Assembly (NCBI GenBank): GCA_002633005.1
Contig: NMRA01000770.1
Span: forward strand, 30,352 to 94,351
Source: Phoronis australis
Taxonomy: Eukaryota; Animalia; Phoronida
DNA length: 64,000 bases
Reading direction: 5' to 3'
The notes below the pieces were generated by a model, which saw only the letters and a program-made list of their open reading frames with translations, was not told the DNA's origin and searched no databases. Positions 22,901 through 64,000 of the stretch are shown piece after piece; positions within the stretch are counted from its first letter, which is position 1, and every line of letters begins with the position of its first letter. Both the position numbers and the translations under genes were made by a program.

Positions 22901-25900
22901 ATTTTGTATGTTTTTCTGTAAAATATGGGTTTTGAAAATGCAGTCATAGTTTGAAAAGTCAAAAGACCTGGTGCAGTTATTTTGTACATTGGTTTGTTGC
23001 TATGGTGAATGACTTGTTTTATACAGCAGCAAAACGGAAAATTTTCATTTTTTCTTAGACTATACATAAATGAAGGCAAGTGCAGTCGGTATGTTTGGCT
23101 TTAAGGTGGATCTTTACGTATTGCTAGTGTTTCTTTGTTTGTTTGTTTGTTTGTTTCCGTGAAACAGGCTCAGTGTGCGATGTGCAGTAGGAAGTGAGAA
23201 AGTCAGATTCTCACTTATAGTTCTGCAGTGCTGTTGCTATACTTTCTCCACTCCACTCTTCGGATAAGTCACATTTTGTCTGCTTGTATCCAACTTATTC
23301 GAGTGTTTGCTTACTTCCAGCTAGAGGAGAGGGTGAACCAGGTGGACAACTTCAAGAAGTTGAAGAAGGAGCCCATGTCGTTTTGGACGAGCCTGCTGCA
23401 GACCTACTTTGTGGGCACCAAGTGTGTGGCTGTGTTAGCTGAGCCCAGCACTGGACTGATGGAGGAGTTGGCGGCGGTGGAGAAGGAGCGGGTGAAGGGG
23501 CAGCAGGAGCATCTGGGGGAGGCGGGGCTGAAGGAANCTATGAAGGAAAAGTTCCAAGTAGAAATTTGTTTCTGGCATTCTAATGCTGTGCTAATCTCGT
23601 ATGTTGGTAAATTTTGTTTTTAATTCTATGTTTCTGTGGTGCTTTAAGCAGCTGGTGTATAGGATGTGCTTGTATTATGAAGATTACTCACATTTTGCCC
23701 CTAGCCTATTGAGGAGACAAGGACCATGCCTTTCCATTTTGCAAAGTACAACATACTACATATATGCCCTCTACTGGCCACTTTATAGTACCAATAAACA
23801 ACCCTAGAAGGATACCATATGCGGTGCAATTGTGGGCGCATTTCAACGCTCTGCGTTGCTCTTGTTTGTTTTGTTTTCACATTTACAAGCTGTCAATGAA
23901 TATAACTGTATTGTGCTTAGCATAGATTATGTTCAAGTAGCATTGTGAGTCGTTTAGTTTCTGCTATACATTAGCAAAGCAAATACACCTTTACAGTGTG
24001 CCAGCTCATCTCAACTAATTCCAACTTTTTTGTTACATATGGCTTGCACACTCCCTGTTGACCATTTCCTTAGAGTTAAACTGAGAATGACTACTGCAAC
24101 AATACGCAGACAATAGAGCCGGAAAAGGCAAATGTTCATTGTCATTCGAAGTATTCTGTTGGATATATGTGAATGCGCTATCACAAACCTCAATGTGGGC
24201 ATAGTATCTGTGATTCAGAGATGCGGCACTTGGATTAAAAATGTCACAATTTATTGAATTGTACTTAGAAATTGCTACAAAATAGGAATCTGTCAGTATC
24301 AAACAAAACCTTCATGTTGATTTGACGTATGTAGACATAGTGTTCAAGGAATTGAATTTCACTTTTTTGCAAAATTTGCAATTACCGTATTCGCCGTAAT
24401 AACCGCCCATGCCCCTATAAGCGCCCCCCCACGCGTTTTCAGACTTTGCTGAAATAAGCGCCCAGTCCATGAACGTGTACATGCGAACAATGACGTACCT
24501 ACAGTCCTAAAACTCGGCTACAGTAACGTCTTCAACTTATCAAAAAATTTTTGCACGGGTCTTCTAGACCACAAGCGGCACTGCTACGTTTGTATTTAGC
24601 CGTGACAAAGTAACGCAGCGCTTCAAAAAGAATGCAACAGCGTTGCTACGTTCTCGCGACGACCGTGTCCCATGGTCTGACCTTTCAGTAGACACATGAC
24701 TGTCTCATGAACAAAAATAACTCGGTGTTAAACGCACGTGGCCAGGAAGCGCGCGCTACATAACCTGTCATCAAAGACATTAGTTGGGAACTATCCATTC
24801 ATGAAGCGGGTAGCATAGCATCGATAAGAAATGAATATTGGAACTAATTTCCGACAATTTCTAATACTATCAACATGTTTGCGTTATTTTTGAGATGGAT
24901 AGTTTGATTAACCGTAACTGGTGTTATTAAGCCGAATATCCGATAAAATGACAACCGACAGTGAATGCTTACACACCCTTACACCGAAAAATAACTGTTA
25001 GATAGTTACGTACGCATCCAGCTACACGGCGACTAATATGGGCTTTGCCGAGACAAATGTCGAAAGTTTTTAGCACGGGAGACCGGCAAGTGCTGAATGA
25101 AACACGCTCTGGTTTAGGTCTACTGCTTGTGCAAATTTCTTTAGACACATCTAGCTAGTTAGATTGCGTGGCTCTGGCCGAAAGAAGGTCTCTGCTTTGG
25201 CAAATGAACTCCGTTGACACGCACGCGCTCGCTTACTCGCATGCAGACGAACTTCAAAACAAACGTCACGTGACAACAACTTTGTGTTCGGCCAGACATT
25301 TTTCTCGCCGTGTTGCCGATCATACATGTACATGTAGATGGCACGATGTTGCACAGATTTATACTTACTGAACCTGTCGTTAATCCAGACTCCACGGGAA
25401 CTTAAAAACCTTAGAGACGCTACTTATAAAATTTAATGAGGATTTCAGGTATCGAAACCATTTTTATTCAAGCATTGAAGTCGCCATATCGAATACTGCG
25501 ATTTCGAAGCAGTCAGTTGGCGAGTTTTCGCNAAACCATTTTTATTCAAGCATTGAAGTCGCCATATCGAAGACGGCGATTTCGAAGCAGTCAGTTGGCG
25601 AGTTTTCGCTCTGGGATTTCAGCACAATTTTCTGTAAAATGATCGTAATTTAGCAGCAAAGTTTGATAGCAATGCACCACAGTTTTGTTGAAAGTCTTTA
25701 ATAGATTACATGCGTCACAGGGCGTAAATTTGATGAATCTTAGCTTCCGATTTCACCCGTTTCGGAGACCGGGTTTCAACCACCTTGGGTTATAATAAGC
25801 GCCCCCCCTGAACCGAACTTTTCTAAGCGCCCTGGGCGGTTAATACGGCGAATACGGTAATAACCTTTTCAAACAAATATTTTACTAAATGGTACTAGAC

Positions 25901-28900
25901 CGGTACTAAAAACATGCAACAAAGAAAGCTGCTACATTTTTAGCGATAACATGACTCTTTATTTTCTTCAATATCGGTGTACCAGAGAAATCTAGTATTA
26001 TATACAGTGTACAACAACCCTTGCTTTAAGTTTATATGCCGAGTACGACATTATATGCCGAGTGCGATATTATATGCCGTCAACCCAGGGGTAGCATCAC
26101 CATAGGCCCATATTATCATACCATGAGACATCACCATAGGCCCATATTGTCATACCTTGGGGCATCACCATAGGCCCATATTATCATACCTTGGGGCATC
26201 ACCATAGGCCCATATCGCACGTTACAACAACTTTCATGAGAGAGNNNNNNNNNNNNNNNNNNNNNNNNNNNNNNNNNNNNNNNNNNNNNNNNNNNNNNNN
26301 NNNNNNNNNNNNNNNNNNNNNNNNNNNNNNNNNNNNNNNNNNNNNNNNNNNNNNNNNNNNNNNNNNNNNNNNNNNNNNNNNNNNNNNNNNNNNNNNNNNN
26401 NNNNNNNNNNNNNNNNNNNNNNNNNNNNNNNNNNNNNNNNNNNNNNNNNNNNNNNNNNNNNNNNNNNNNNNNNNNNNNNNNNNNNNNNNNNNNNNNNNNN
26501 NNNNNNNNNNNNNNNNNNNNNNNNNNNNNNNNNNNNNNNNNNNNNNNNNNNNNNNNNNNNNNNNNNNNNNNNNNNNNNNNNNNNNNNNNNNNNNNNNNNN
26601 NNNNNNNNNNNNNNNNNNNNNNNNNNNNNNNNNNNNNNNNNNNNNNNNNNNNNNNNNNNNNNNNNNNNNNNNNNNNNNNNNNAGGCTAATGTACGTATTC
26701 AGCAATTTTATTGATCTGGTTTAACTGTCTTCTTTGCACAGGCATTTTCATTGTTTTACATTTTGCCTTTGTTAGATATTCGTTTTTTTGTAAGCTGTAT
26801 ACTCTTCTATTCTACCCTAACTTACAAATTTGCAAGCTGTTTTTTCATGAATCATAGTTGTATCCAATTATAGTTTTCAATACTGTTCTCGACCATGCCT
26901 CCTGTTGGTGTTCATAGGCACCTTTGTAAAATCACTTGATTACAGTGTTGACCCTGTGCTGTCAAACAAATAGATCCTGTGGATTTGCCTTCCCGTGTTT
27001 TTTGGTTTCATTTCAGTCTACCTCTCTGGAAATCAATATTACAACCGAGGTAAAGAGACACGGCCTTGGTCAGCTGTTGTGATCATGTTATTGAAAAATA
27101 TTTGATTAGCTTTGAAGCTAAATGTCCAGTTGTCGTGGTTACGTTGTTGCGTCTGTTTCCAGGAGCAACTCCGATTTTCTGCTGTTCTTATTCTACTGGA
27201 GTACCTGACGGACACGTCAATCTCGCCTCTACAGAGGGACTTTGTCGAGCGGGAAGACCCTTATTGCAGCAAGGTAGCCTTGTTAGCTGTCAGTCATTTG
27301 ACGAATATTTTTTCGGGAAAAATTTAAAGAAAATTTTCTCTCGTCACATATTGATAGTTGTGGAAAACATTGACTTCAAAATTTCAAGAAGTGTGGTTTT
27401 GTTATTGTTTTGTGGGATTTTCACAAAGATTTAGACAATATTGAAATAAGTTAGTCTTCAACAAAGCAAGATTCAAGCTTTTTTGACACGTCTAGATTAT
27501 TCCATTTTTGTATAACTTTTCTGCTTCAAATCTCGGTGACTTCATGTTTTATTGCATTTAATGTATATTACATTATCTCTTTACAAACAAATACCTTAAT
27601 GGTTCATGATGCCGAAAGTCCAAGAGTCTTGCCAAATAACGTCTTGCCTCAAAACCAAACTTTTTGATTTGACAAAGAAATTTTTAATTTTGGCCTTTTA
27701 TTATTAACAGTAACATCGGTCTCACCATGTTCTTTTATTAGATTAGAACTGAATTTTAGTTCTGAAAAGAATTGATCAGAGCAAATAAGGTGGTTGCCAT
27801 GGGTGGGTAATGTCCGGTGCTAAGGCAGTATCACTGCCGGGAGAACAGCAGGAGGTTCGAAACGGAGGATGAGGTCCGTATCTGATTTGTTTTGAAGAAC
27901 AAATTTTTGCAGTGAAAGCGGATGTTTTTTAAAACCAAAACATGGTTTTGAGTATTGTGTAACTGACAACGGCCCTTCAGTACAAAGGCAAAGTTCCTCG
28001 AAATCTGAACTTAATAATAAAAGTCGTGATATAAGCCAAGTTTATAGAAATTATATTTCGAATTACTTCCGCTGTGCACTGATGCAAAGGAACTTTATCT
28101 ATTTAGTTTTTCAATTCTTGTTCCTGTGATTTATTTAAGTCTTTACCTTAACATTAACAGGTTCGCTATTCCATCATTGAGAACTCAGAAGGGTGTATTT
28201 ACTTGAAGTTCGAAAACGTTCCTACCGCCAAGATAAAGGAAATCAAACCACGGTTTGTTTCTTTGCAATTACTTCCCGCTTTCAGCGCACTAAATATTGA
28301 GTGTTTTTAAATGAGATTTTTTCTGATGTACTTTGTAAGAGTTTTAACCTGATTGTTAAATTATTTTTTGGAAAGTTGCGTACGTGGCCGATAAACCAGT
28401 AAATGGTCGTATATAATGTACCTGCAGTTTGAGAACCAGTTCTCTACACTGAGTAACAGGCTTTAAACTGGTTCTCATGATGTGGGCCCAGTATATCCGA
28501 CTATTGCTTGTAAATCTACTCGTACCATCACGACAACTCACCAGTTAATTGTGCTGTAAAATGTAAAGGCGGTCGAGCAGGCGGCAAAACTGAAATCGTG
28601 AGCAGACGACTTTTAATTGTCAATGTGCGTCTGTGTCAGATGCTTCAAGAGTCGTTACAATCTGCCTAGTTCCCTTTTTTTGAGTTACTTAGCCAAAAGG
28701 TGACACTCATTTATCAACATGACTCATGCAGGAGACTGTCTTCAGCTTGTCTGTGTCAGTCAGCAGTTTGTTTGATGTTTTTGCCAAGAGGTGGCGATGA
28801 AAGCACAGAATTCATGGTAGAACGCACGTTATAGGTTTTGCTAAGGTAGATTTTTATAAAACATGGATAAATCCCTGGCCATGCCTTTAAAGTAATGTGA

Positions 28901-31900
28901 ATCTGTACACTTAAAAATTTGGTTGCATTCCGTGGTAACGTTTGGGCTGGCTTGTTGTTGTCGTTTGTTTGATTTTGTCTTGTCTTTTCCAGGCTAATGG
29001 AGACTTTGGAAGGTCTAGTCAACCGGTCTGAGCCAATCAATGAACAGAGGATGAGCGATGTAATTCAGAAGAGGATTCTAGAGTCANGCTTGGGATGAAG
29101 GGACCCAGTCGGTGTGAGTGGGGGGGTGACTAGAGTCACTGAGTCAGGTAGGCTTGGGATGAAGGGACCCAGTCGGTGTGAGTGGGGGGGTGACTAGAGT
29201 CACTGAGTCAGGTAGGCTTGGGATGAAGGGACCCAGTCGGTGTGAGTGGGGGGGTGACTAGAGTCACTGAGTCAGGTAGGCTTGGGATGAAGGGAGCTAG
29301 TCAGTGTGAGTAGGAGGACTGTAAAGATTGTTGAACAGCCCCATTGCAAAGAATGACTTTATTTTCAGCGCACATATAAATTTGTGATCTTTGTTCTGCT
29401 TTTGTGATCCAAAAATCATTATTTATCAGAAAAAAGAAACGGATCGGAATCAAATTAGTGAACGATTCTCGTTTTCTGTTATACTGTTGTCAGAATGGAG
29501 CTCATAGTTTTTTTTAATTTTGAACTTTTTTATTTTATCTTACGTTGATGTTCGCCATTTTTGAACCAATGACGTAGCACACAGTAGAACTTAAAAGATG
29601 GCCTGGTTTGGAGCTTTAATTGACGAAATGCATTTTAATGGGTAACGACCTGCAGTAACCGACAGCACTCGTTACTCGTTGTATTTCCGGCATCCAAACT
29701 TACGAAAATAAACATGATTTTACATGTACTCCAAAATAAAATGACTGTTCCTTATGTAATTGCTCTGCGCATGCCAATAGAAAGTGTGTGTTTACAAATT
29801 AAACAACTATGAGTGATGCGGTAATAGCAAACCTATCATAAGAACCCGGGACGTTAAACGTATAACATTATTTGTGACCGTTTCAGCTTACTCCAGTGTC
29901 AGAGCATGTAACCAAATTAAATCATTATTCTCTTGTAGCTTGAGGAGGACCCACATGACAAGTTTGCGTTTGTTGCTATCGGCGACTTCTTGTATGGGAA
30001 CACGAAAGATGAGGTACTGGCTGAAAAATTTATATTTTCCAGCTGCATTTAATCGAGTTTAGTTTCTAGGTATAGAATCTGATCTATTTTGTATGTTTTT
30101 CTGTAAAATATGGGTTTTGAAAATGCAGTTATAGTTTGAAAAGTCAAAAGACCTCGTGCAGTTATTTTGTGCATTGGTTTGTTGCTATGGTGAATGTCTT
30201 GGGACTTGGTTTATACTACAGCAAAACTGAAAATTTTTATTTTTTCTTAGACTATACATAAATGAAAGCAAATGCAGTCGGTATGTTTGGCTTCAGGGTG
30301 GATCTTTACCTATTGCTAGTGTTTGTTTGTTTGTTTGTTTCTGTGAAACAGGCTCAGTGTGCGATGTGCAGTAGGAAGTGAGAGAGTCAGATTCTCACTT
30401 ATAGTTCTGCAGTGCTGTTGCTATACTTTCTCCACTCCACTCTTCGAATAAGTCACATTTTGTCTGCTTGTATCCAACTTATTCGAGTGTTTGTTTATCG
30501 TATATACCTTTATCTACCTCCAGTTAGAGGAGAGGGTGAACCAGGTGGACAACTTCAAGAAGTTGAAGAAAGAGCCCATGTCATTTTGGACGAGCCTGCT
30601 GCAGACCTACTTTGTGGGCACCAAGTGTGTGGCTGTGTTAGCTGAGCCCAGCACTGGACTGATGGAGGAGTTGGCGGCGGTGGAGAAGGAGCGGGTGAAG
30701 GGGCAGCAGGAGCATTTGGGGGAGGCGGGNNNNNNNNNNNNNNNNNNNNNNNNNNNNNNNNNNNNNNNNNNNNNNNNNNNNNNNNNNNNNNNNNNNNNNN
30801 NNNNNNNNNNNNNNNNNNNNNNNNNNNNNNNNNNNNNNNNNNNNNNNNNNNNNNNNNNNNNNNNNNNNNNNNNNNNNNNNNNNNNNNNNNNNNNNNNNNN
30901 NNNNNNNNNNNNNNNNNNNNNNNNNNNNNNNNNNNNNNNNNNNNNNNNNNNNNNNNNNNNNNNNNNNNNNNNNNNNNNNNNNNNNNNNNNNNNNNNNNNN
31001 NNNNNNNNNNNNNNNNNNNNNNNNNNNNNNNNNNNNNNNNNNNNNNNNNNNNNNNNNNNNNNNNNNNNNNNNNNNNNNNNNNNNNNNNNNNNNNNNNNNN
31101 NNNNNNNNNNNNNNNNNNNNNNNNNNNNNNNNNNNNNNNNNNNNNNNNNNNNNNNNNNNNNNNNNNNNNNNNNNNNNNNNNNNNNNNNNNNNNNNNNNNN
31201 NNNNNNNNNNNNNNNNNNNNNNNNNNNNNNNNNNNNNNNNNNNNNNNNNNNNNNNNNNNNNNNNNNNNNNNNNNNNNNNNNNNNNNNNNNNNNNNNNNNN
31301 NNNNNNNNNNNNNNNNNNNNNNNNNNNNNNNNNNNNNNNNNNNNNNNNNNNNNNNNNNNNNNNNNNNNNNNNNNNNNNNNNNNNNNNNNNNNNNNNNNNN
31401 NNNNNNNNNNNNNNNNNNNNNNNNNNNNNNNNNNNNNNNNNNNNNNNNNNNNNNNNNNNNNNNNNNNNNNNNNNNNNNNNNNNNNNNNNNNNNNNNNNNN
31501 NNNNNNNNNNNNNNNNGTAAATGGATGAGGCGAGTGCGTGTGGGTGAGGTGGGTGGATGAGTGGATGGGTGTACGGGCTGCTTCTGTACATCAGCTTTGA
31601 ACGGCAGTTGAAGTTACAGAAGGTGAAGGAAAGATGGACACATGGGTGGTGGCAATGAGAGGTGAGTCTGAGGTGGAGATGGAGAAGGTACAGGCCATGC
31701 AGCTGAATGAGATGATGATGTGTTGAAGTGGGTGTGTGAGTGAGGTGGGGTGGCTGGGTGATGCGGGTTTGAAGCTGAAATGAGGTTGATACAGTCACTG
31801 AGGCAGGGGGAGGTTGAAGTATGAGGGTGGTGAGGTAGACTTGTAGTTGACCTGATTTGGAATTGAGATGAACTTGTGTTTTCATTGGTGTAGGTAACTA

Positions 31901-40900: not shown

Positions 40901-43900
40901 GTAAGCTGTTTTTCGTGTAACTTTTGACAATGATAACCACATCCCAAAATACCACAGTTCTGCTCTGTTTCTGTGATATTTACCCACAATGCTACACTGA
41001 TATTGCTCAGTGAGCTGTAACTGTGACATAAGCAATTTGAAAAATCCTGTGGGGTGTGATATATCATTCTTACAAGTCCGATTTGCCTCTGTCAGAAATC
41101 TTAGCAGCCAAACATTGACCAATATGGACAAAAACACCGTATTTGATTTTGGCCATGACTAATGTCTGTAACACGGTGATGAGATTTGAAGCCAGTTGCA
41201 CACTATGCAGCAATAGCCACAGGAGTCACAGTTTTTCAACCTTGTGCCCTTAATTCATTGGAAAAGATGGTTTTCAAAATGCGTAACTATTACTCACTAT
41301 GCCAACAAGACTTGAGATGAGTTGCAGTAGGTACATTGCACGTAAAAATAGTCTTGCAAAATGAGCCGGAATTCTCTGTTATTCCAGTTGAGGGCAAGTA
41401 GTGAAACCTAGTAAGTGGAATGATGAGTTGTGAAAGGTCATGACCCATGATGAAAGGTCATGACCCATGGTGAAGGGTCATTACAATCGTGAAAGGTTAT
41501 GTCCCGTCATGATGTGCAATTATTGTTCTATTTAGTTCATTATAAGTTGTAATACTACAATGTTGTGGTATTGCAGCCGTGTTGAGCTGTGTTGTGTTGT
41601 TTGCTGTGCCATGGTTAGGCAACAATACTGATGAGTTGAGTTGAGCCAAGTCATAAAGTGTGCAGCAGGCTTGATGGAATAACTTTATTCAGCGGTGTTG
41701 GGCATTTATGTCAGTTTACATTACCGTCTTTACTCTTTACAAAAGACATGATAGGGCTGTTCTATTGCAATCAGTATGGGTGAGTGAGGCACCTGAGGTA
41801 AAAAAATAGGCTTGGGAAAAATTGGTGATTTGCTGAAGATTGGAATCATGAAGTTACCCTTAAAAGTTTTCTGTTTTGTGTATTGAAAAGCAGCATGACT
41901 GGGCCCCGCAGGATTTGTGCGCCCTCTTTTGTCAGCAACTATTTTAATATCAATGTATGAACGCAATAATGTTTTGAAAGCACAAACACAACTGTAGAAA
42001 AATGTGTCCGCAGTTTCAAAAGTGATTGGTTCGGAAATTTTTTATTAACTCACACTCCTCAGATTTTAAACAACTGCATATCACACAGTTTTAATTTTTT
42101 CTTTCAGTCATCTTGAGGTACCTTGAATTAAAAGATTGAGTTAGAGTATACAAATTATTCTGGTCAAAGCGACATTTTTCCCTTTATGGTTGGATAAAAA
42201 ACAAAAATTGAGTCAGGCTTTATCCCTCGTAAAATCGGTCTCGTAATATTTTTTACCTAAAGTTTGATAGGATTCTGTTCTTGTTACCAACAAGAACTTC
42301 AAAACCACCAGAGACACAAGCAAATGGACAACTCTTTGAGAATGGAGGTCGTACGCGTTGTGTGTGGCCAATTGACAAATCAAGATAGGATGAGTGCTGT
42401 CATGTTTGTTTTTAACCAAAATGTTTAAATTCCAAAGCACTTTCAATGGTTAAGAATTGGACGTTGGCAGATTATCTGGCCCGAAAATGCAGCTTTAGTA
42501 ATGCCTGGATTGTTTTGTTGCAAGGTCTTCTCGTCTATTCAAAACTGTTGGAATTATTTTAGGGTATTAAGATCTTTCAGATAAGCCCTCTACTTAGTAG
42601 ACAACTTTCAAGGAGTGGATACTAACGACATCTGGTGGCTGGGCTGGTTATGTAAATACAGTTCCATCCATTCGTTTCTCTTGGTTTTGAAGCACGTGTC
42701 GTTCACGATGTGCCAGCGTAATAGAAGCTTTTTTAGCTCACAGCGTATTTTGTGATGTCTCGTGGTGTACACGATCGGATCCGCGATTTGGTTCAACGAT
42801 AACAGAATCATAGTTGCAGCCACGATTTTGGGGATGAGCGTACTTGTCGATTTGGCGTCTTGATTGTCGTAGAGATATAAATACAAAACAGTTGATGGTA
42901 GCCATAGTAACACGAACGTCAACGCTATGAGGCAGATTGTTGTTATTCCACTCGACTTTTTCTGATGTTTGATTTTGATCAGTAGCAGTATGAGAGAGAT
43001 GATGATCCCTATCACCATTATCAATCCCAGAATGCATTGTGCCAGCTGAAACCAGTTGTCTGGGCTGCTCTCTGATTTGTTGGAGCTAAGGATCACCAGA
43101 GCTTGACCAATCGCAAGGATAATGGCAACAATCCAGTGTAAGCAAATGAAGACAATGACGCGATGTCGCGTAAATAACCGTTTGAATTGATGTGGCTGGT
43201 ACGACGCCACGATTCTCTCTATGGTCATGAAAAACATGGCAAATAGTCCCGCGTAGAGCGATGCCATGGCCTTCAGTTGGAATATGTTGCTAACGAGCTG
43301 TAAAATATTCAATTTCTCATGCTGAACACGGTGTGATTTACCGAAGCACTGACAGATGAAGCAGCACAACACTGCGCTAACGAGCTTACTGACGGAGAAT
43401 AAAATATCGGCAACACCAAGACTTGCGATGGTGTATATGGTGTTGTCTTTCTGTTTGACGTTCACCAAGGCCAACATGCCGACGGTGTTAAGGAGTATCG
43501 CCACCAAACTAATGCTTATTATCCCCCCTGAGACGACGCAGACAGGCATACTGGCGCACGTGTCCAACGAGGTGTTGGTCATCATGTTCAGTGTCTGTTC
43601 AGCAGTGGTGGTGATGGCCGTCATCGCCATGGCAATACTTCTTACATGTCAGTCACTCAGATGTTGGTATCAATAAATATTTGGACACTCTTCTGGAGTG
43701 AATTACCTGTTATGAAAAAAAAGAAAACATTAATGTTTATTTCTGGTTCTTTATTGTCTATAAACTATGTAGGTAAGTATGATCTTACTGTTGGTTTAAC
43801 CTGTAACCAATTTTCTGGTGCTAAAACCTACTTCTTCACTGGTGTGCACTGTGTTGAAGACTGATAATATAACACCCGACATATCTCTGATGGTTATACA

Positions 43901-46900
43901 CAGCATTGGCGACCGATAATAAAATACCGGGCATATCCCTGATGGCTGTGCACTGTATTGGCGACTGAAAGTAATCTGCTTCAATATTGGCAAACTTACC
44001 GAGTATGTTTTGAAGCAGTAACAAACTGTCAGATCTTCTCAAGCCAAGAAGTCGCCTTCTAGTCTGAGACTAGTAATTAGAAAATGTCAACCGTTGTCAA
44101 GTCCTTTCACATTTTGTTCTATTAATTAAAGCTCGATGAAAGTACAGTGTAAGACAAATTTAAAGTAATCAGACAAAATACAGTGCAAGACAAAAGTAAT
44201 CAGACAAAATACGGTTTCCCTGTCATGATTGTTGACACCGTTATGATAGCTAATGTGGTCAGAACCTGCTAACGGACAGAATGACTTGTAATAAGTAATA
44301 GGCTGGCGAAATTCGTGATAACTTTCTTGTTAATTTCCCGTCATTCTCGGTCACGAGGAAAGTCTGCTCTGATGTTGAATTCTGCTTCAACCCCGCCATC
44401 ACGACAGAATTCTGGTTAATTTTGTAGGACTACTGCCTAGTGCCGTATATTATTTTCTGAAATCGCAATGACTGCAATTTTTTAATTTGTCTCTAATAAT
44501 ATAGCACATTGTTTATAATCATGAGACGATTGTTGAGAAAATGTTCATCTTTTTTACTTTGAACTTGAATTTCTGAAAAAAGTGCTTGTAACTTCACGTT
44601 TAAACTATATATTATACTTACTTTGGTGTAGAATTTCCCTCATAGTTATTCTTATTGAGGAACTTGATACAGGTATAAAATCCTTTTATTTGGAATATTT
44701 GATTGCCAAGTAGGTTAAGAATTACCCTGAATTTTGTTATTTTATATGATGTAATTTTTCAATTTTTGACTCAAGTGTAGTTTTTGTTTTCAGACCCAGG
44801 AGTTGCACATTTTTTTAAACGTCAGTCATTTCCAGTAAACTGTATCTCACTTGATTACGAATCTCATATAAGGTTCTACAAAACAGTTGTTTTGATGGTC
44901 AATTGAAAACATCAAAACCTGAGAAAACTTGAAAGAAAAACACGGATCAAATATCCATTTCCATTCAACTGAAGTAATTCAAGTAATTCTGGCGAGAAAT
45001 TCATCCAAGTTTGGCAGAGTATGACGCAATTCTAGTATATTTTTAATTCATGCACGATTTTCGTACATTAGCAAAGAATTAAGCATTTCATTGACTCAAG
45101 ACTTCTAATGGATTTTTTGTGTTAGAAACTTTACAGTTGTACAGTCTGATATTGATCAGTGACCCTATTTATAACTTGATTGCATTTAAATATTCATTGC
45201 TTATAATGCTGACTAGTTACACAAACATGAATAATGCATAGTATTACTAGCACCTTTTGAAACAGAGAGAGAGGAGCCTTCTTCCTCCATGAGGCATGGT
45301 ATTTGTTATGCATTTTCGTAATCTGTCTGAGATTGATTATGAATCTTCGAATATTGTATATTGTCGTCTATCTGTGCTCACAAAGTACTTTGAATAGGCC
45401 CGTCCTGAAATACCAGACCACCACTCTTTCTATGTTCAAAGATCTAGTCAGAACTACAATAAAGGTTCGTTATCCACTTCCAGATGAAATTTATAGGTAC
45501 CAACCTGTCGTTGATTGGGTCACATGACCGAGTGTTTTTGTAATAGTAGTCAAACAGAATGGCATGCGGCTGCCCATACTGGATGAAAGATAATGATATC
45601 AGTAGCATAGTACAATTTCATTTGTGGAGACACTCTTATGACTGTCACTAGGTGGCGATGAAGTAGTCAGTGGATATCATTCTTGGAAAGGGATTCAATG
45701 CAAAGGAAATTTACAGCATTTTTATGCGGCGCATTATGCCGTCATCTCCGTCCATCCGTCCGGGCGGCGTCCGGCGTCCGCTGCTCTATCTCCAAAACCC
45801 TTTGACATACGTTCATGAAATTTGGCACATATGTTCCATTCATGAATGGGACGGCATGTGCGAACTTTCGGACAAATTTGACTACCGGTGTGCCCCCTAG
45901 TGGCAATTTTAGTTTTTTACGCTTACCTTTGTATCTTCAAAAGTCCTGAACGGATTTTCATGAAATTTGGTATGTAGGCACCTATTAGTGAGATGACGCT
46001 ATCTTGCCGTTTTCAGATGGATTCGACATAGTTTGCGCCACCTAGTGGCCATGTTTAGTGTTTTCGAGTCTGTTTTTGTGCNAGTCGCCTTCTAGTCTGA
46101 GACTAGTAATTAGAAAATGTCAACCGTTGTCAAGTCCTTTCACATTTTGTTCTATTAAAGCTCGATGAAAGTACAGTGCAAGACAAAAAAGTAATCAGAC
46201 AAAATACAGTGCAAGACAAAAGTAATCAGACAAAATACGGTTTCCCTGTCATGATTGTTGACACCGTTATGATAGCTAATGCGGTCAGAACCTGCTAACG
46301 GACAGAATGACTTGTAATAAGTAATAGGCTGGCCAAATTCGTGATAACTTTCTTGTTAATTTCCCGTCATTCTCGGTCACGAGGAAAGTCTGCTCTGATG
46401 TTGAATTCTGCTTCCACCCCGCCATCGTGACAGAATTCTGGTTAATTTTGTAGGACTACTGCCTAGTGCTGTATATTTTTTTCTGAAATCGCAATGACTG
46501 AAATTTTTTAATTTGTCTCTAATAATATAGCACATTGTTTATAATCATGAAACGATTGTTGAGAAAATTTTCATCTTTTTTACTTTGAACTTGAATTTCT
46601 GAAAAAAAGTGCTTGTAACTTCACGTTTAAACTATATACTTACTTTGGTGTAGAATTTCCCTCATAGTTATTCTTATTGAGGAACTTGATACAGGTATAA
46701 AATCCTTTTATTAGGAATATTTGATTGCCAAGTAGGTTAAGAATTACCCTGAATTTTGTTATTTAATATGATGTAATTTTTCAATTTTTGACTCAAGTGT
46801 AGTTTTTGTTTTCAGACCCAGGAGTTGCACATTTTTTTTAAACATCAGTCGTTTCCAGTAATCTGTGTCTCACTTGATTACGAATCTCATATAAGGTTCT

Positions 46901-49900
46901 ACAAAACAGTTGTTTTGATGGTCAATTGAGAACATCAAAACCTGAGAAAACTTGATAGAAAAACACGGATCAAATATCCATTTCCATTCAACTGATTCAG
47001 AAGTAATTCAAGTAATTCTGGCAAGAAATTCATCCAAGTTTGGCAGAGTATGACACAATTCTAGTATATTTTTAATTCATGCACGAATTTCGTACATTAG
47101 CAAAGAATTAAGCATTTCATTGACTCAAGACTTCTAATGGATTTTTTTGTGTTAGAAACTTTACAGTTGTACAGTCTGATATTGATCAGTGACCCTATTT
47201 ATAACTTGATCGCATTTAAATATTCATTGCTTATAATGCTGACTAGTTACACAAACATGAATAATGCATAGTATTACTAGCACCTTTTGAAACAGTGAGA
47301 GAGAGGTGCCTTCCTCGTCCATGAGACATGGTATTTGTTATGCATTTTCGTAATCTGTCTGAGATTGATTATGAATCTTCGAATATTGTATATTGTCGTC
47401 TATCTGTGCTCACAAAGTACTTTGAATAGGCCCGTCCTGAAATACCAGACCACCACTCTTTCTATATTCAAAGATCTAGTCAGAGTTACAATAAAGGTTC
47501 GTTATCCACTTCCAGATGTAATTTATAGGTACCAACCTGTCGTTGATTGGGCCACATGACCGAGTGTTTTTGTAATAGTAGTCAAACAGAATGGCATGCG
47601 GCTGCCCATACTGGATGAAAGATAATGATATCAGTAGCATAGTACAATTTCATTTGTGGAGACACTCTTATGACTGTCACTAGGTGGTGATGAAGTAGTC
47701 AGTGGATATCATTCTTGGAAAGGGATTCAATGCAAAGGAAATTTACAGCATTTTTTATGAATTCTTTGTGATCATAGCATCTAGTTTCCCTTGTTGTGCA
47801 TTAGGATGTTCAGATTTCCCTTGTTGTGCATTAGGATGTTCAGATTTCCCTTGTTGTGCATTAGGATGTCCAGATTTCCCTTGTTGTGCATTAGGATGTT
47901 CAGATTTCCCTTGTTGTGCATTAGGATGTTCAAATTACCCAATTGTAAGTTAGGAGTTTTTCACACAGTTGTATGTTAAAAATGTCTTTGAATTAAAAAA
48001 GTTGCGTTCCATCCTTGTAAATGAAACCAGACGTGCACTCCAGGTGGGTAATGTGACCATGACTCTTTGTAAATTATAGTGTTATTTAGTAATTGATATT
48101 GCTGTTTAATGAATTATAGTGCTATTTAGTAAATTATAGTGTTATTTAGTAATTTAAAAATATAGCAAAACAAACCTACATTGATAGCAAAATGACAGTA
48201 TCATTAATGTGAAATCTCATTTCCTGTAAATTTTTTATGTAGATCCTCAAAAAATCTTTGAAATTTTCTACACATGTCATTCTTCACTGACAGCAAAAAG
48301 TCATACTTTCCCTAGTCTCTCTTGCAAAAGTGGAACTTTTTAATTACAATTCCTAGCAGCGTGTTCTGAAATTCGTCAAAACTTTCCAGAGTCCCACGTA
48401 ACTTTGATCTATGATAGTGAGGTTGAGGTGACTGACACTGTGGATTAATTGTGCCAGGCTCACTGGTTATGATATGAAACCTAGTCACTTAAAGTAGCCT
48501 GTAGACCGTTTGCTCATGGTTATGAAACCAAGTCACTTAAAGCACCCTGTTGACCGTTTGCTCATGGTTATGAAACCAAGTCACTTAAAGCACCCTGTTG
48601 ACCGTTTGCTCATGGTTATGAAACCAAGTCACTTAAAGCACCCTGTAGACCGTTTGCTCATGGTTATGAAACCAAGTCACTTAAAGTACCCTGTAGACTG
48701 TTCGCTCACACCACTGCTTTGAGATGGATGCTACATAACTGCAAATAACATCAAGTGATTAATGATTAAATAATGGTGAACGTCAGTCTATAAAGTAATG
48801 AATCCAGCTTTCTTATGCTTTATCACATGCCTGCTCATGGCTTAGTATGCAATATTTGAGACCGTTAATGACCTGTAAAAATCATACATTAGTGTAATTG
48901 GTTTTATAGTTTTGATAAATAATAAAAATTCTATTATAATTTTATGAGAGTACAATTGGAAAGTACCAGTATTGACAGACTGTGCAAACATGTTATCTAA
49001 TATTTGAAGTTTGTGGGAGAAACCGCACCAGTCATACCTTCAACTTGCCTCTTCATAATAGACAGTGTCTCAATGCCATTATTTTCTCACAGTGCTTCAC
49101 TTCTTCAGCACTGGTCTCACAGTTGAACAGGCCTGGTGATCACTCAAGTTTGCATCATTTGTTATTTTAGTTTCAGTTACACCCCCCTCAGTTAAATGGG
49201 TAATGGTCTGATATAGCATGCAGAAATTTTGAGAACCAGTTTTCTCCACTGAATAACAGGCATCAAACTGGTTCTCAAAATACGGACACGTTATATCAGA
49301 CTATTGCCGTTAAATGTGTTTACTAATAACCGGGTGCATGGCAACGTGTGATGTCATTGTTTCGTTTTTTCAACTGATTAGAAGTAAACTTCCTTTTCAT
49401 TATGGTAAAATTTTTTTGAAAATTTCAACGCAGTGTGGCGGAACTGTAAGATTTCATTTTGGAAGTAATTTCAACAAGAGTAAACACTTATTTTATTATT
49501 TGAAAATTCTATTTAGTGCGGCTGTCATCAACAAGCTCACGATGAAATTTTGGACATTTTTGGCAATGCAGCAACCATTTGAAAAATTGAAAAAAATTTT
49601 GGCCACTTTTATTATGCGCCCACATATTTAATATGTTGACGCATTATGCCATCATCTCTGTCTGTCTGTCCGTCTGTCCGGGCGGCGTCTGTACGGCATC
49701 TGTCCGACATCAATGTTCCGCTGCTAAATCTACTTGTTTATTGCAAACTTATCGGATGCTTTTAATTTTAATCGAAGACTGAAGTTAATTGTTCATTCTA
49801 ACCACAACTCCCCAAAACATTGACTCTGTTGAGTGCACAAAGTCAGGAGTTGTAGAATGAGGTGCAGAGTAGTGAAACAAGAGTCAGCACAATGAGATTA

Positions 49901-57228: not shown

Positions 57229-57994
57229 AGACGGAGTCATTAGTTTGAGCAAACGTCTCTTATACTCCGCGTAATTACTGCTCCTCTTTTATCTTGTAAC
57301 TGTAGTCCCAGTGCTCTGGGCTTCATTAATGTCAGATTGTAATCTCGGTGTTAGTCGATAGCTGTAACTTATCCAAGGAGCCAGTTGGGCTCAATGGGTA
57401 TGGAGAAACATTTCACATAATAGTTTGTTTTTGTAATAACTACAACGTTACTTGTCTGGGTTACCGCATGTGTTTGGCTGAGGCACTTACTGCAAAATTT
57501 TGCAAATTTTGTTTGTAAAAGTCCATAAACAGCTTATCTCTCACCCTCGGTTCATACGATCAAGATTTCATTGAAAGCGCCTGTGTTACGTCTCGTGTGA
57601 AAAGTTTCCCAAAACATATGAAACGGGCTTTGAGCTTTCAGTAAGTTATGTACAGAAACTCAGCGGCACCCTGCNCCATCAACGTCACACAAATTTTGTT
57701 TTTAAACTTGCTCTTCCCACCCCTTTATTTTGCAGTTCTTCAATATAACCCCCTTGCCTGTTAACCCTGATGAGTATGGTAAAATCGTGTTATGATTAAT
57801 TTTTGTTGTGAAACTATCAGTAGGTTGTCGCTTTCAGTTATACTAGATAACTGTACTTTAGGTTAAGGATGTCTCAAGCCTACAACTACTTCACTGCCCC
57901 CTGTTGCCTAAAGCCGCATCAAATACCCACATGTTTATGTATTGTCTTTATGGCGTTCTCATTAACGTAATCTTTTTGTTATTGGTTTTTCTTG

Positions 57995-58000: not shown

Positions 58001-58892
58001 CTGGTAGCAGGTCTGCCTTTTTCATTAGATTATTGTTTTTCACATTTTCGAAAGCTGTGATTTTCGTACTGTCAATACAGTTCTTGAGTGCATTTGTGGA
58101 GTTGTGTTTGTACTTTCTGTTTAGAACTTATTGGTAAGGCGGTGGGTGGATAAGTTAGAAGCCAACAGCATCATGATAACTATTGGCCAATAAGTAAGGG
58201 TGTGGCAATTAATTGACTTGTAATCAAGATGTGTCAGATTTTAATACTGATAGGTTAAGGTCCATTTTGATTCGATTCTTATCTCAGTTTTTGCTGTTAG
58301 GTGTCTTACAAAGATATCCATTACTTGTATCTTGAAGGGCATTATTGAGATATTGAGCCAATTAAAAGCTCAGGATCATTCTGAAATCTTGTCACATCTA
58401 AGAATTTTCCACAGCAAGCACAGCTGTCCCCATAAAATGCTGACACTCGCATTGTCCTAATGAAGCCTAAAAGGACACTTAACCCTGTTTTGGTGATTTC
58501 AATCAACCCTCTTTCTGCCACTTGCAAATGTATCATTGGCATCACACTTCAGTGATAAAAGGATTCTACTAAAAATTTCGTGCTGTCTGTGTCACAGATA
58601 GGTTATAATTCTCGATGGGTGGTCTTTCCCTACAGTTGAGGTGTAGCTGCGGATAGGGTAGGTGAGGCTTGGGGTTTTAGTAGACACTTTTTAAAGAATT
58701 TTTAAGTTTTGCTCAAAACATTTGAGGGTTGTGGAGGGTTACATAACATTATTTTGCTTCAGAGAACTAGATGCAAATGTCTTTTTTGACTTTTTTGGAG
58801 AATAGGCTCCTCATTGGTCTCTAGAAGCATTGTATATAAAATGTTCACTTTACGTTGAGACGTGGTTGGTTGTTGGCAGACGTTTCGACCTG

Positions 58893-59298
58893 GGCCCGGT
58901 CTCCAATCTTTTTACTCGAAATGGAACTCGAAATTAGGTTTGGCATTTTCTTTTCTACTTTTGGGCGAATTCAAGATAAGTGTCTATTATTCTATGCTCG
59001 AGTACACAATAACTTACCTAGACAATTTATTGCCCTTAGTTCACAGTTTGTAAACCCAATATTAATTTAAAGCAATAAGTTCGAGTTTGAACTCGAAATT
59101 TCGAGTTTTTACTCGAGTTTGTAGCACGAATTTAAGGGTCTTCAAGGGCAAACTTGAACTAGAAACTGCTATGCATAAACTATAATGTATTCGAGCATAG
59201 TCTGATTACCAATTATTTTAAGTTCGCACAAAAGGAGCAGAGAAATTGCCAAAAATAGTTTCAAGTTCGTTTCGAGTACAAATATTAGAGACCGGGCC
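58893..59298. mobile_element. Fold-back MITE, PIF/Harbinger-like (3-bp CTG TSD)
   Basis: TIR GGCCCGGTCTC.AAT / ATT.GAGACCGGGCC with imperfect symmetry extending inward, and CTG on both sides. Confidence 0.75.
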
Positions 59299-59961
59299 CT
59301 GGTCTGCCAGGTCTTTGTCGATGAATGAGGGATTTCCCGCCTTACGCTCGTTAAGAATGCTGGAGTACACGGGGATAGGTGGAGTCCTCTGTCTGGGTTC
59401 AAGAGGGGGCGCTGACTTGATGTTTATGGCCTCTTGAACATTTTATAATATACTATACAGTATGTTTATAGGTCAAAACGGGGTTTGGTGTCCTTTTAAA
59501 TGAAAAGTAATAAAAGGTTGACATTGTTGATTTTTTTCATGCAGGAATTTGCTAAAATTGATATGAGTGGTAAGTTAACTACTTGTAGCTCAAAAAAATG
59601 AATACATTTGACAAACAAGAATGGAAACAATAGAAGTAATCAAGTTCCTCCTTAATAGGTTCCTAAAATGTTTGTGGTCCCACCCATACATATTACTTGT
59701 TGTTTTTATATCCATGGCTTCGCCCCTTTGGATAATGCAGAGGACATTCACTGGCAGCCCTATGGGTCAATAACCCTAAAGTTTTTCGTTTGCCGTGAAT
59801 TTGTCTCCCTTACTTAGCCTTTATTTTTTCTCTAAATATCAGGACGTGACGAGACCACATGACAATTGTTCGTATTACCGAGGTGCTATAATTAACCAGC
59901 TGGAGCGATAGAGGCAGGTCGACACGTAGAAAACAAAGGTTTGTCAGTATGTTAGAGACAC

Positions 59962-62900
59962 TTAAGAGCAAACCGTGTATACGGTGCGCGACTTGTGTGT
60001 AATGCCAGTTAGCGCGTTGCTGCTTTTCTCCGCTGTCTTGTGGCAACTGCTCGTGCCGTCGTCTTGGCTGCACTCGAAGAAGCCCATCGTGTTGCTATGC
60101 GTGATGTCATTCTCCGAAGCGAACACTCGAGACGCGTACTTGGCTATCGCCCAGTTGGGTGAACAGTCGAAATCCGACACGAAGGAATCGACGTTGTATC
60201 GAATGCAACTGAAATCAACAAAACGACACAATTGACGTTCTTCATCAGAACCGCGATCGAAATGCCTCGTTATTTTCCGAATATTTTGTCACCATATTTA
60301 TAGAATTACAATAAGGGGTAGATTTTCTTTGCGTATTACTGACAAAAACAGTTACAATCCGAAGAATACCGTTCGCCAGAAAAATGCCTTTGACAAGAAA
60401 TGGATGCTGAATGTTGGACCTGAAGTTTTGTACTGGGCAACCTGCAGTTCGTGAGAAAAGAACAGTGTTGACGAGAAGTGCACTCGAAGCAGAACTGGAA
60501 CTGATGAAAATTTGTCCGTAAGTAGAAGTCACGAACTTTAAAATTAGGGCGTTAAGTGAAGAAAGACATATTGATCCGACGTTTCGGTTTATTACTTTGA
60601 ACCATTCTCAAGTAAACTGTTCACATATTCAAACAGGCGACGCAGGTGGAGAACAGACTGTACAGGTACACATCAAAATGCATTGTGAGGAGGGAGAGAC
60701 CAGAAATCAAAACCCTCCCCCTCGCAATGCATTTTGACCTGTACCATTACAGTGTGTTCACCACCTGTGTCGCCTGTTGGAGTATGTGGACTGTTTTCTT
60801 GAGAATGGTTTACGTAATAAACCGAAACGTCGGATCAATATGTCTTTATTCACTTACGCGCTAATTTTAAAGTTCGTGCTTCTGTTTTGGCCGAAAACAA
60901 ATATAAGTAATGCCATTTCGTAACTGAGTCGCACTGAGTTGTGTGTGTGAGTACTGTTGACTAACTCCTGTTCTTACTTTTAACTTTTACCGTGTGTTAC
61001 GTGCTGGTCTTGATCCTTCGACTTGATGCACGTCCCGTGCACTTGTGGCCGAAATCGAACGTTGTTATCGAATGTTTGCGTCTTCAGAAAAAAAAAAAAT
61101 TTCAAAGTATTAAATTCATGCAAAAAGTTGTTTCCACTCTCTGTTGAGGGTTCATCAGGTCCACAAAACGATAAACATTTCTGATCTGCAGGTGCCAGAG
61201 ACAAACTCTATTTCGGGGCAATACACTGTTGATCTTAGCACGCCAACGATTTCCACCCCTCGTCGCCCCAAATTAATCGCATCATCGCCACCATTTTCAC
61301 CGCGCCCGGTCGCTGCCCATTTCGCGCAGCAATGACCTCCACCCGCCGACGCATTTTATTGGCCTTGTTGGGAAAGAAACGGTGCGGAAGTTGCGAGTAT
61401 TTTTAAGTAGTAACCTGTACAATTGTCATTAACCGATGTTGAAAATCTCTGAAACAGCGTATCAAGTATTTAAAGGGTTAATTCACTAGAAAATTCATGC
61501 AGTGGAATAATAATAATAATAATAATAATTTCGAGCTCGATTTCTACTAAAAAGTTTGGTCCTCGGACCCAGCTGGCCTCGCAATAAGTGTTGCGCGAAC
61601 AAACCCCTGTATTCAATGCCTCAGTCAGTTTCCTAAATAACCGTCTTTAAAACAAACACTATTCACGAACTTATAACGTCATCGCGAAAATTGCTTTTGA
61701 AAACGAGATGTATAGACTTTCAAGTCATTGTTGCAATACATTTTGAAACTGCGACGCGTAACCTTGGAATATTTCGGTTATCCCGCAGCTTGAAGTGGCC
61801 TCAACGAAGAGACCCTGTTGGAAAGTGATCCTTCTATACGAAAGGGTATATCTTAAAAAGGAGTAACAATGATAATCTGGGGTCTCCCTCCCTCCGAGAG
61901 CTCCTTTTTCAGATAAAAGAGTGCTGATGAAAACGGTATAAGAGCCTTCATGGATGCCATCATCGAACCCTTTTCAAATAGACCCGCTCTAAATATGAAA
62001 GAATAATATGTAACGTCGCGAAGACTGAACAGGAAATGATTAAAGAATTGTATAGTTTCAAGGAACGAGAAAAGAGAGATGTACGATTCTATGCCAAAGA
62101 GGGTTTTTTAGAGAATAGCGGCTTTGAAAGTTATTTTCATGAATTGTGACTAAATTTGCTTTGGAATGTCTGCTATTATCAAGAAAACCCACTTTAATTT
62201 TCATGTTTATTTTAAAAAAGCACGTGATTTTATGGTAAAGTGTCCATTCTTATGTGCGAGCAGACGATGCCTGCTACAGAAAATTGAAGTGGTTTTCTCC
62301 TATAACAAAAATGGCTCGTCCGGTGCCTTACATAGGCCCAAGGTAAGTGACGCTTACAAATTATTAGAGCGCATGTTCCCAGCACGACGTCCTAGGACAC
62401 TGGTTGGACTTTACAAACACCCACTTACGCCTGTACGCCGTTGATGTAGTTGTAACCCACGTGACAACCGATCGGCTGCCGACCAAGATGGGCACACAAG
62501 TTGCGGTAGTCGAGACACCAGTTGGCGGAATCGGAGCGTCCACTCTTCGGAATTCTCACCTTTAAGAATACGATGGACCTATTTCCCACGATATAGGTCT
62601 CCTCCATTCGTTGAATTTCGAACGCCGTGTCGTTCAGTGTTAGACCTGAATATAGAAAGATAATCATATCGTTGGAGACTCTTACGTCTCGGAATTCAGT
62701 ACCGGTGCACATTGTGCTTTTAGCGAACCTCAAGCCCAAGGGTCATTTTTGTAAAAAATCGCGCAAGTCTGGCCTTATCCAGTGATTGTATCTCTTTGCT
62801 AAATTTTAATTGAAAGACACGATCACATTTCTCAATGGCAAATTGTTGCAAAGTAAAAATATAATTCTACTGGCTTCCTGCAGTTACAGTTTATAATCTT

Positions 62901-63936
62901 GTATAAATTGTAGTTCATTAAATGCACAGACTTGTCGAAACTTAGCATGGTCCCAAAACCCTTACTTCCATTGAAAGGCATCGTCCATGGCGAGGCTATG
63001 GTGGCGACTGTCGTGGGTGGCGCGGAACAGTTGAGTAGCAGCGCTTGAAGGTGGTCTCGTCCTTTCTGGAAATGTGAAAGACATGTTGCGGGTCCAGGAT
63101 GTTGCAAAGAGGAGTACTCTTCGTTTATTTCGTAAGCTGATCTATATGTACTAAGCCCACCACTAATGACTACCAAAATTGATGTTTGTTCGAGGATCCT
63201 TCCTCGCCAGTCGTGACGCGAATCTCTCACCTGTTTGATTTATCATCTCCTCATAAAAGGACAGACAAGATGAGCTGCAAAGTGCGTGGTTTACTAGCTT
63301 AATAATGGTGAAACATATATCTACTGAAGGCACCTTCCAGTATAAATTCAGTTTTCAGGAGGTAGACCGGAAACGTATCTCTGCCTTCAATTCAAGGAGA
63401 TGATAAATGAATGGGGCAAAACATGAGCGGCGCAGACCTAAAGACAGTGTGCGTGTGGGGGGGTGCACCGCCCATAGACCGTGGGCTCCGGAGCCCTGAA
63501 AAAATGGGGGCTATTGCGTTCCCTATTCAAAACAAAATTTCTGACTAAAATGTGTCACTGTGATGTCTTAAACTTTAAACGGTGTTAGGGCGTACAGGTG
63601 AATGACCTCGCAATGTAATGTTACTGTTGAGGGACAGCATCGGATGCTCTAGCCCACTATCATCCCATCCACAGAGCTGACTAAAAGCGGTTCAGTGTTA
63701 GAAGTGTAACCCCCCCGGTTCAATGATGAACGTCTTGGTGAACCCGTTATAACTTTCCCCGTAATGCTCATATTTCAAAGTAGAAATTTTGCCCTCCGTC
63801 GTTCCCGACAGCGCTTCTTCCCATTTGTTGGGATACGGGCATTTTTTCACGAGTTTCAACCCTTTTCTTGCTGCGCACTGCGTTTCCCTTTTGAATCGCA
63901 GTTCTGATGACTGGCACGTGCTTGGTACAAACCGAA
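59962..63936 (-). CDS. Uncharacterised Cys-rich protein, 3' exons only; possible degenerate vWA-like segment
   Basis: Exons 62966-63230, 62429-62645 and 59962-60208 join in frame via GTAAGG and GTAAGT donors and CAG acceptors, giving ...NWCLDYRNLCAHLGRQPIGCHVGYNYINGVQA/CIRYNV...TVYTVCS*. A further candidate exon at 63658-63936 needs a -1 correction in a G7 run. The 5' end lies outside the window. Confidence 0.7.
60575..60614 (-). ncRNA. Second minimal hammerhead-like motif (mirror copy)
   Basis: The minus strand reads TAC-[TTGAGAA]-T-GGTT-CAAAGTAATA-AACC-[GAAA]-CGTC-GGA. Confidence 0.5.
60796..60834 (+). ncRNA. Minimal type I hammerhead ribozyme-like motif (U3-A8 core variant)
   Basis: TTC-[TTGAGAA]-T-GGTTT-ACGTAAT-AAACC-[GAAA]-CGTC-GGA. 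Confidence 0.55.
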
Positions 63937-64000
63937 CTACGACAGGTACAAGAACAGTTTACGCCCATTTCCTGTCAGTGGGGGGTGGGGGACGGGGTGG

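Follow-up and report, generated by a model that had tools for sequence, protein, structure and literature searches.

The palindrome and its host intron

In the 64-kb window, the whole stretch of DNA that we analysed, an imperfect palindrome of ~380 bases lies inside an intron of an expressed gene. We resolved the gene by aligning three raw RNA runs (X6, X7 and X8) and one contig set, all with the same species label, to positions 59400–64000. Spliced reads joined 60208 to 62429 (19 reads in X6, 20 in X7 and 0 in X8; CT..AC on the plus strand) and 62643 to 62964 (cut +2; 26 and 12 reads and 1 contig, again with CT..AC ends). As the joints have CT..AC ends and the first mates lie on the plus strand, the host gene is on the minus strand, and the joint 60208/62429 places the palindrome inside an intron of 2,220 nt:

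59965..60208, minus strand, coding part of the last exon seen of the host gene (read depth and open spliced frame)
60209..62428, minus strand, host intron GTAAGT...TTTCAG (spliced reads), with the element 310 nt from the acceptor
62429..62645, minus strand, host exon upstream of the intron (joints 60208/62429 and 62643/62964)

The spliced frame is open as far as the stop at 59962–59964, and the gene was expressed in three of the four runs, X8 being the exception. The host protein showed no Pfam family, no Atlas match and no homolog at E ≤ 0.001 among eight candidates (72-aa exon, longer proteins only). The spliced C-terminal region of the gene (59962–63067, minus strand) is cysteine-rich.

An inverted-repeat search found three collinear pairs of inverted segments, 60600–60693/60717–60810 (94 nt, 85%), 60553–60595/60814–60856 (43 nt, 98%) and 60530–60552/60856–60878 (23 nt, 96%), together spanning 60530–60878, and blastn widened the fold-back to 60524–60883. 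The minus strand folded at −241.3 kcal/mol (z = −28.6), and none of 100 shuffles was equally stable. Together with the spliced reads, the inverted segments and the fold bear out the intronic fold-back of ~350 bp reported at 60530..60879 in a preliminary description made from the letters of the window; with its tail and candidate duplication the whole unit is bigger, covering 60519–60909. It is a single copy within the window and is made up as follows:

60519..60524, plus strand, candidate target-site duplication, left, TAAGT or TAAGTA (6-nt direct match at both boundaries)
60524..60713, minus strand, left arm (arm alignment and paralogous reads; outer boundary 60524 or 60525), probably the 3′ end of a Penelope-like element with the last 4 coding bases, the stop and the 3′ UTR/pseudo-LTR, ending at the tail-less short end
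60714..60883, plus strand, right arm, an inverted and more 5′-truncated second copy (arm alignment)
60884..60903, plus strand, one-sided 20-nt tail (covered by paralogous reads at 60893 in three runs, which diverge heterogeneously behind 60902)
60904..60909, plus strand, candidate target-site duplication, right (6-nt direct match)

Aligned in element sense over ~171 columns, the arms show 18 substitutions and 4 single-base gaps. The 170-bp hairpin that they could form in an expressed gene might have been retained as functional intronic dsRNA, serving as a source of small RNAs against the family, as an editing substrate or as a modulator of splicing, and its outer part is more perfect than the inner (4 differences in 72 nt vs. 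13 in 91; Fisher P = 0.077). However, the arms differ at 22 places in all, their longest identical run is ordinary (P = 0.12), and a wobble bias towards the pre-mRNA strand is absent, only 2 of the 18 substitutions being G–U compatible there and 4 of 18 on the other strand. Nor were any reads tied to the palindrome locus: read depth was 0–0.05 in the intron bins 60324–60477 and 60940–61093, the palindrome itself was covered on both strands, and most of these reads run on into unlike sequence, so they come from other copies of the family and not from this pre-mRNA. We consider retention for such a function extremely unlikely. A bolder version holds that head-to-head Penelope stumps in the introns of expressed genes are self-silencing cassettes, in which the 170-bp hairpin would be diced to small RNAs against the pseudo-LTR of the whole family, which is still transcribed, and pairing of the outer 72 bp would be maintained by selection or arm-to-arm conversion; this is a long shot. 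The A>G and T>C differences seen in the reads were considered as A-to-I editing and rejected, as they come from paralogues and other individuals.

Hammerhead motifs and their predicted folding

Each arm contains UUGAGAA-U-stem II-GAAACGUC-GGA. The pattern TTGANAANG-N(8-24)-CGAAACGTC had two matches in the 64 kb, at 60578–60611 (minus strand) and 60799–60831 (plus strand), and none of 100 shuffles had any match. There is thus, as the preliminary description held, one U3–A8 minimal hammerhead-like motif on each strand:

60575..60614, minus strand, minimal hammerhead, sense to the host pre-mRNA: U3–A8 core 60611–60605, extra U, 4-bp stem II, GAAA, ACGU helix III, GUC
60796..60834, plus strand, minimal hammerhead, antisense to the host pre-mRNA: core 60799–60805, 6-bp stem II, C17 = 60831, 3-bp helix I with one G–U

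Both motifs are of minimal type I, having U3–A8, an extra base after A9, G10.1–C11.1, GAAA, an NUH site and the palindromic 15.1–16.1. Reads from the family give a 3-bp helix I, UCC/GGA, with C at 2.2, and U at 60599. The left arm instead has A and C at these two sites, so helix I of the sense motif is broken at 2.2 (A opposite G, 2.2/1.2) and its stem II is 4 bp, and it is the more damaged of the two; the plus-strand motif keeps 3 bp including the wobble. The earlier statement that U3–A8, stem II and GUC are intact in both arms therefore holds for U3–A8 and GUC, and for stem II only the plus-strand motif has 6 bp. The splice-site strand of the spliced reads confirmed that the minus-strand motif is sense to the host pre-mRNA. 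The cut expected at 60831 lies in the antisense motif; the sense motif has its C17 at 60578 and would cut after that position. None of five Rfam matches (E ≤ 10) was a hammerhead, only weak matches to microRNA hairpins being found, as might be expected for motifs without helix III. The 16 defining bases are unchanged between the arms, but at the arm-wide difference rate this identity is not significant (P = 0.11) and is not evidence of selection.

With core nucleotides, GUC and ACGU intact, the minus-strand motif could function as a ribozyme of the intron, active or switchable, and by itself or in an intermolecular dimer sever the pre-mRNA after 60578. In the available part of PMC11167929 the hammerhead of an anole Penelope-like element (PLE) cleaved in vitro but needed the help of protein to do so, and insertion did not require cleavage. 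Our folding model, which is without proteins, points the other way: forcing the ribozyme fold cost +43.4 kcal/mol on the minus, pre-mRNA strand and +42.3 kcal/mol on the plus strand, the probability of stem II was ~1e-13, that of the 10.1–11.1 pair was 1e-10 or lower in nascent-chain folds, and the isolated motifs and their homodimers did not adopt a hammerhead fold. Transcription of a head-to-head unit always reaches the antisense arm before the sense arm, and because there is one motif per strand the pair cannot dimerise in cis, within one transcript. Helix I at 2.2 and stem II are altered from the family state, and the identity of the cores is within chance. In the excerpts available of PMC4209133, in vitro cleavage was absent for minimal motifs as monomers and weak for dimers. 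No pile-up of read ends was seen among the best-supported positions, where the reads stem from other family copies and not from this locus. An active ribozyme is the most remote of the readings that we considered, and the earlier proposal that the intron can form either a long dsRNA hairpin or a ribozyme fold lacks support in view of the cost of the latter and the order of transcription. The motifs are predicted by the model to be locked shut in the hairpin and inactive.

Copies of the family and the putative end of an open reading frame

The paralogous reads outline the family to which the arms belong; differences and loose ends are given for the best-supported cases, beyond which there were another 57 differences and 52 loose ends. 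Reads followed the left arm to 60713 and continued with one consensus in all four runs (36, 71 and 18 reads and 1 contig). Since they run on past 60713, what looked like a loop is part of the left arm, and the shorter inverted copy that forms the right arm begins at 60714–60715. Between 32% and 94% of the aligned records continued into unlike sequence, with several break points among the best-supported ones; there, other copies stop at 60679–60690 or join up again with the right arm at 60821 (4+4 reads), at 60852 (weak, with a 21-nt side) or at 60863 (2 reads), so head-to-head junctions differ between copies. The reads thus reveal a family of multiple dispersed copies, 5′-truncated to different extents, with transcripts from both strands in all four runs. 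Relative to them, both arms share three states (60633, 60851 and N7), consistent with one parent for both arms. On the right, one contig stops at 60878, close to where the tail-less end lies, and the tail extends 20 nt past the end of the inverted match and is family-derived by the reads; its end point comes from one run, X6, where 12 reads diverged behind 60902 with an agreement of 0.58 among the best-supported cases. Direct matches of at least 6 nt, as in the candidate duplication, occurred in 0.6% of 19,075 random position pairs in the intron.

The continuing reads also give a hint of what preceded the arm in a complete element. Translated on the minus strand, the overhang reads RNI(R/G)SFELQ, the junction codon is L, and the window then gives F and a stop:

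60707..60709, minus strand, TGA, putative stop of the RT–endonuclease ORF of the element, 95 nt upstream of the hammerhead U3

The overhang consensuses show three differences, two of which, judged by eye, leave the amino acid of this frame unchanged. The likeness to PLE C-termini was noticed first and then tested with two profiles, a narrow one built from 37 coral-type C-termini and a broader one from 38 of 149 diverse representatives found with a PLE protein. On the narrow profile the 9 residues from the reads, taken alone, did not stand out (top 11–14%), and the 11 positions plus the stop were in the top 0.05–0.08%. On the broader profile the 9 residues were in the top 0.2–0.4%, and the 11 positions scored 3.97, which equals the upper quartile of leave-one-out members; only 3–6 of the 66,387 window positions scored as well, none of them followed by a stop. 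In the nearest relative, P0170 (RVT_1), the C-terminus is NNIYSYQIKLF. Judged by these letters, the left arm looks like it starts in the last codons and the stop of a Penelope-like ORF, of which 11 residues and the stop are visible, 9 of the residues coming from a 30-letter read consensus. No convincing PLE ORF or ORF body was found within the 64-kb window (best E = 0.004), and other families that share the motif were the only ones to show RT and GIY-YIG. A family-specific pattern had 0 matches in metagenome contigs, and two patterns had 0 matches in viral contigs.

These observations bear on whether all 380 bp of the palindrome move together as a non-autonomous mini-element of a retrozyme-like or MITE-like kind. 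The perfectly terminal inverted arms do resemble a fold-back element, and transcription of the family from both strands would suit such a unit. Like the palindrome, non-LTR retrozymes are, in the accessible text of PMC7229834 and bioRxiv 10.64898/2026.07.22.740005, short, non-coding, hammerhead-bearing and PLE-related. However, beyond 60713 the reads pass from the left arm to ORF-like sequence, the junctions vary among copies, the tail is one-sided and unlike terminal inverted repeats, and the window holds a single copy. As far as those same texts go, retrozymes are arranged in tandem head to tail and bear their motifs on a single strand, canonical type I motifs in PMC7229834, whereas the palindrome is a head-to-head pair. 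We regard a mobile mini-element as very unlikely; the suggestion of a small retrozyme-like element found no support, as there is no head-to-tail tandem, one motif per strand and no second copy in the window. A MITE or fold-back DNA transposon was rejected because the right arm runs 20 nt past the inverted match before the duplication, leaving no symmetric terminal inverted repeats.

Related loci and probable origin

A relaxed motif pattern found the same motif variant at 102 public loci, 100 in metagenomes and 2 in genome contigs, and since none of them resembled the arms by blastn beyond the motif, they represent other families. PLE ORF remnants lay upstream in 12 of the 102. Among these is L101, whose RT ORF (RVT_1) has a GIY-YIG-like end and one in-frame stop and ends ~80 nt before the motif; the named relatives of this ORF are stony-coral proteins. 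The layout recurs in DNA from other animals: a head-to-head second motif was present in 4 of the 50 loci with at least 300 nt upstream. In L005, L033 and L102 one arm is longer by 36, 23 and 22 nt and the direct repeats are 8, 10 and 12 bp, and L102 encloses RT remnants. Among 42 distinct motifs stem II covaries, with 10.3–11.3 paired in 32, six pair types and 0 of 5,000 shuffles reaching this, relatedness being uncontrolled and the core fixed by the pattern; the motif is thus under selection in active PLE families, which says nothing about the copy in the palindrome. We also considered near-equal arm lengths (~190 nt each with tail) as a general rule, which we rejected as L024, L033 and L102 are lopsided. 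Both L101 and L102 are contigs of a metagenome-assembled bacterial genome; their Penelope-like sequence, with its hammerheads, is of animal type, which suggests host contamination of that bacterial assembly.

The layout of the palindrome is that of an EN+ Penelope-like insertion unit, which in the available parts of PMC3846280 and PMC8557442 consists of a pseudo-LTR, an adjacent inverted 5′-truncated copy, a one-sided tail and a target duplication. Shared with this unit, as far as it is described there, are head-to-head inverted copies, one of them shorter at its 5′ end, a tail on one side only, a short direct repeat outside, and a hammerhead in the pseudo-LTR behind the ORF stop, here a putative stop. 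Differences are the extreme truncation, the palindrome having no ORF body, and a family that was not assigned to a named one; the tail is 20 nt vs. 30–40 nt and the candidate duplication 5–6 bp vs. 8–10 bp in those sources, and shorter too than the 8–12 bp of the parallel loci. Metazoan PLEs carry minimal type I hammerheads, including a U3–A8 variant and "dual min-HHRs" 100–700 bp apart on opposite strands, according to the portions available of PMC4209133. The motifs here match that account in U3–A8, the extra base after A9, G10.1–C11.1, the palindromic ACGU without loop III, the short helix I and the placement of the pair on opposite strands, 187 nt apart; unlike it, the family has a 3-bp helix I, here damaged, and stem II is 4–6 bp vs. 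7–8 bp. Poseidon of Anolis carolinensis (PAc), in what PMC11167929 offers in part, likewise has two 3′ ends differing by the tail and an AT-rich target; its hammerhead is C3–G8 vs. U3–A8 in the palindrome, and its ORF starts inside the hammerhead.

The palindrome is thus very probably the remnant of a single, old and heavily 5′-truncated insertion of an endonuclease-bearing Penelope-like retroelement, with the hammerheads as passengers that are predicted to be inactive. The putative ORF end, the tail, the candidate duplication and the parallel loci all support the inverted Penelope terminal-repeat relic of the preliminary description. In a scheme of two-end priming taken from PMC11167929, the protein of the element would nick both strands of an AT-rich site 5–6 bp apart, and cDNA would be primed from each end, starting at two neighbouring sites of the RNA. 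One start would give the tail-less left arm and the other the right arm with its 20-nt tail; both cDNA copies would stop after ~190 nt and be fused head to head. As the host pre-mRNA is made, the antisense arm would appear first and pair with the sense motif, giving an imperfect hairpin of 170 bp and no ribozyme.

The palindrome neatly fits what two-end priming with two start sites would produce, and it flags a PLE family of this animal that is transcribed and could be curated. Alone it has little significance, the layout having been described in 2013–2021 and opposite-strand hammerhead pairs in 2014, and it would matter more only if the intronic hairpin yielded small RNAs or altered splicing.

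Several other features of the window came to light. At 58860–59345 (minus strand) there is a second, unrelated minimal-hammerhead-like motif with stem II GACCTGG/CCAGGTC, GAAACGTC and a core C at position 4. Its stem II is interrupted by a 406-bp element, which may be Harbinger-like and shows perfect terminal inverted repeats of 11 bp together with a CTG duplication of 3 bp. Two related fold-backs at 11235–11781 and 7016–7502, ~68% alike, are MITE-like and without hammerhead motifs. A degenerate palindrome at 15106–15368 has an arm with tRNA-like sequence (ARAGORN tRNA-Ala TGC at 15134–15208; Rfam 50.3 bits) and is likely a tRNA-derived repeat. Kilobase direct duplications of 93–97% identity pair 19087–23526 with 26683–30729, beside N gaps and with repeated exons, and 44050–45723 with 46083–47755; they are likely both haplotypes assembled in tandem. 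Finally, 42608–43648 (minus strand) encodes an intronless rhodopsin-family receptor of 346 aa (7tm_1, E = 1.3e-12). It appears to sit, in antisense orientation, within an intron of a multi-exon gene on the plus strand, which, with exons assigned by eye, seemingly ends near 57229.
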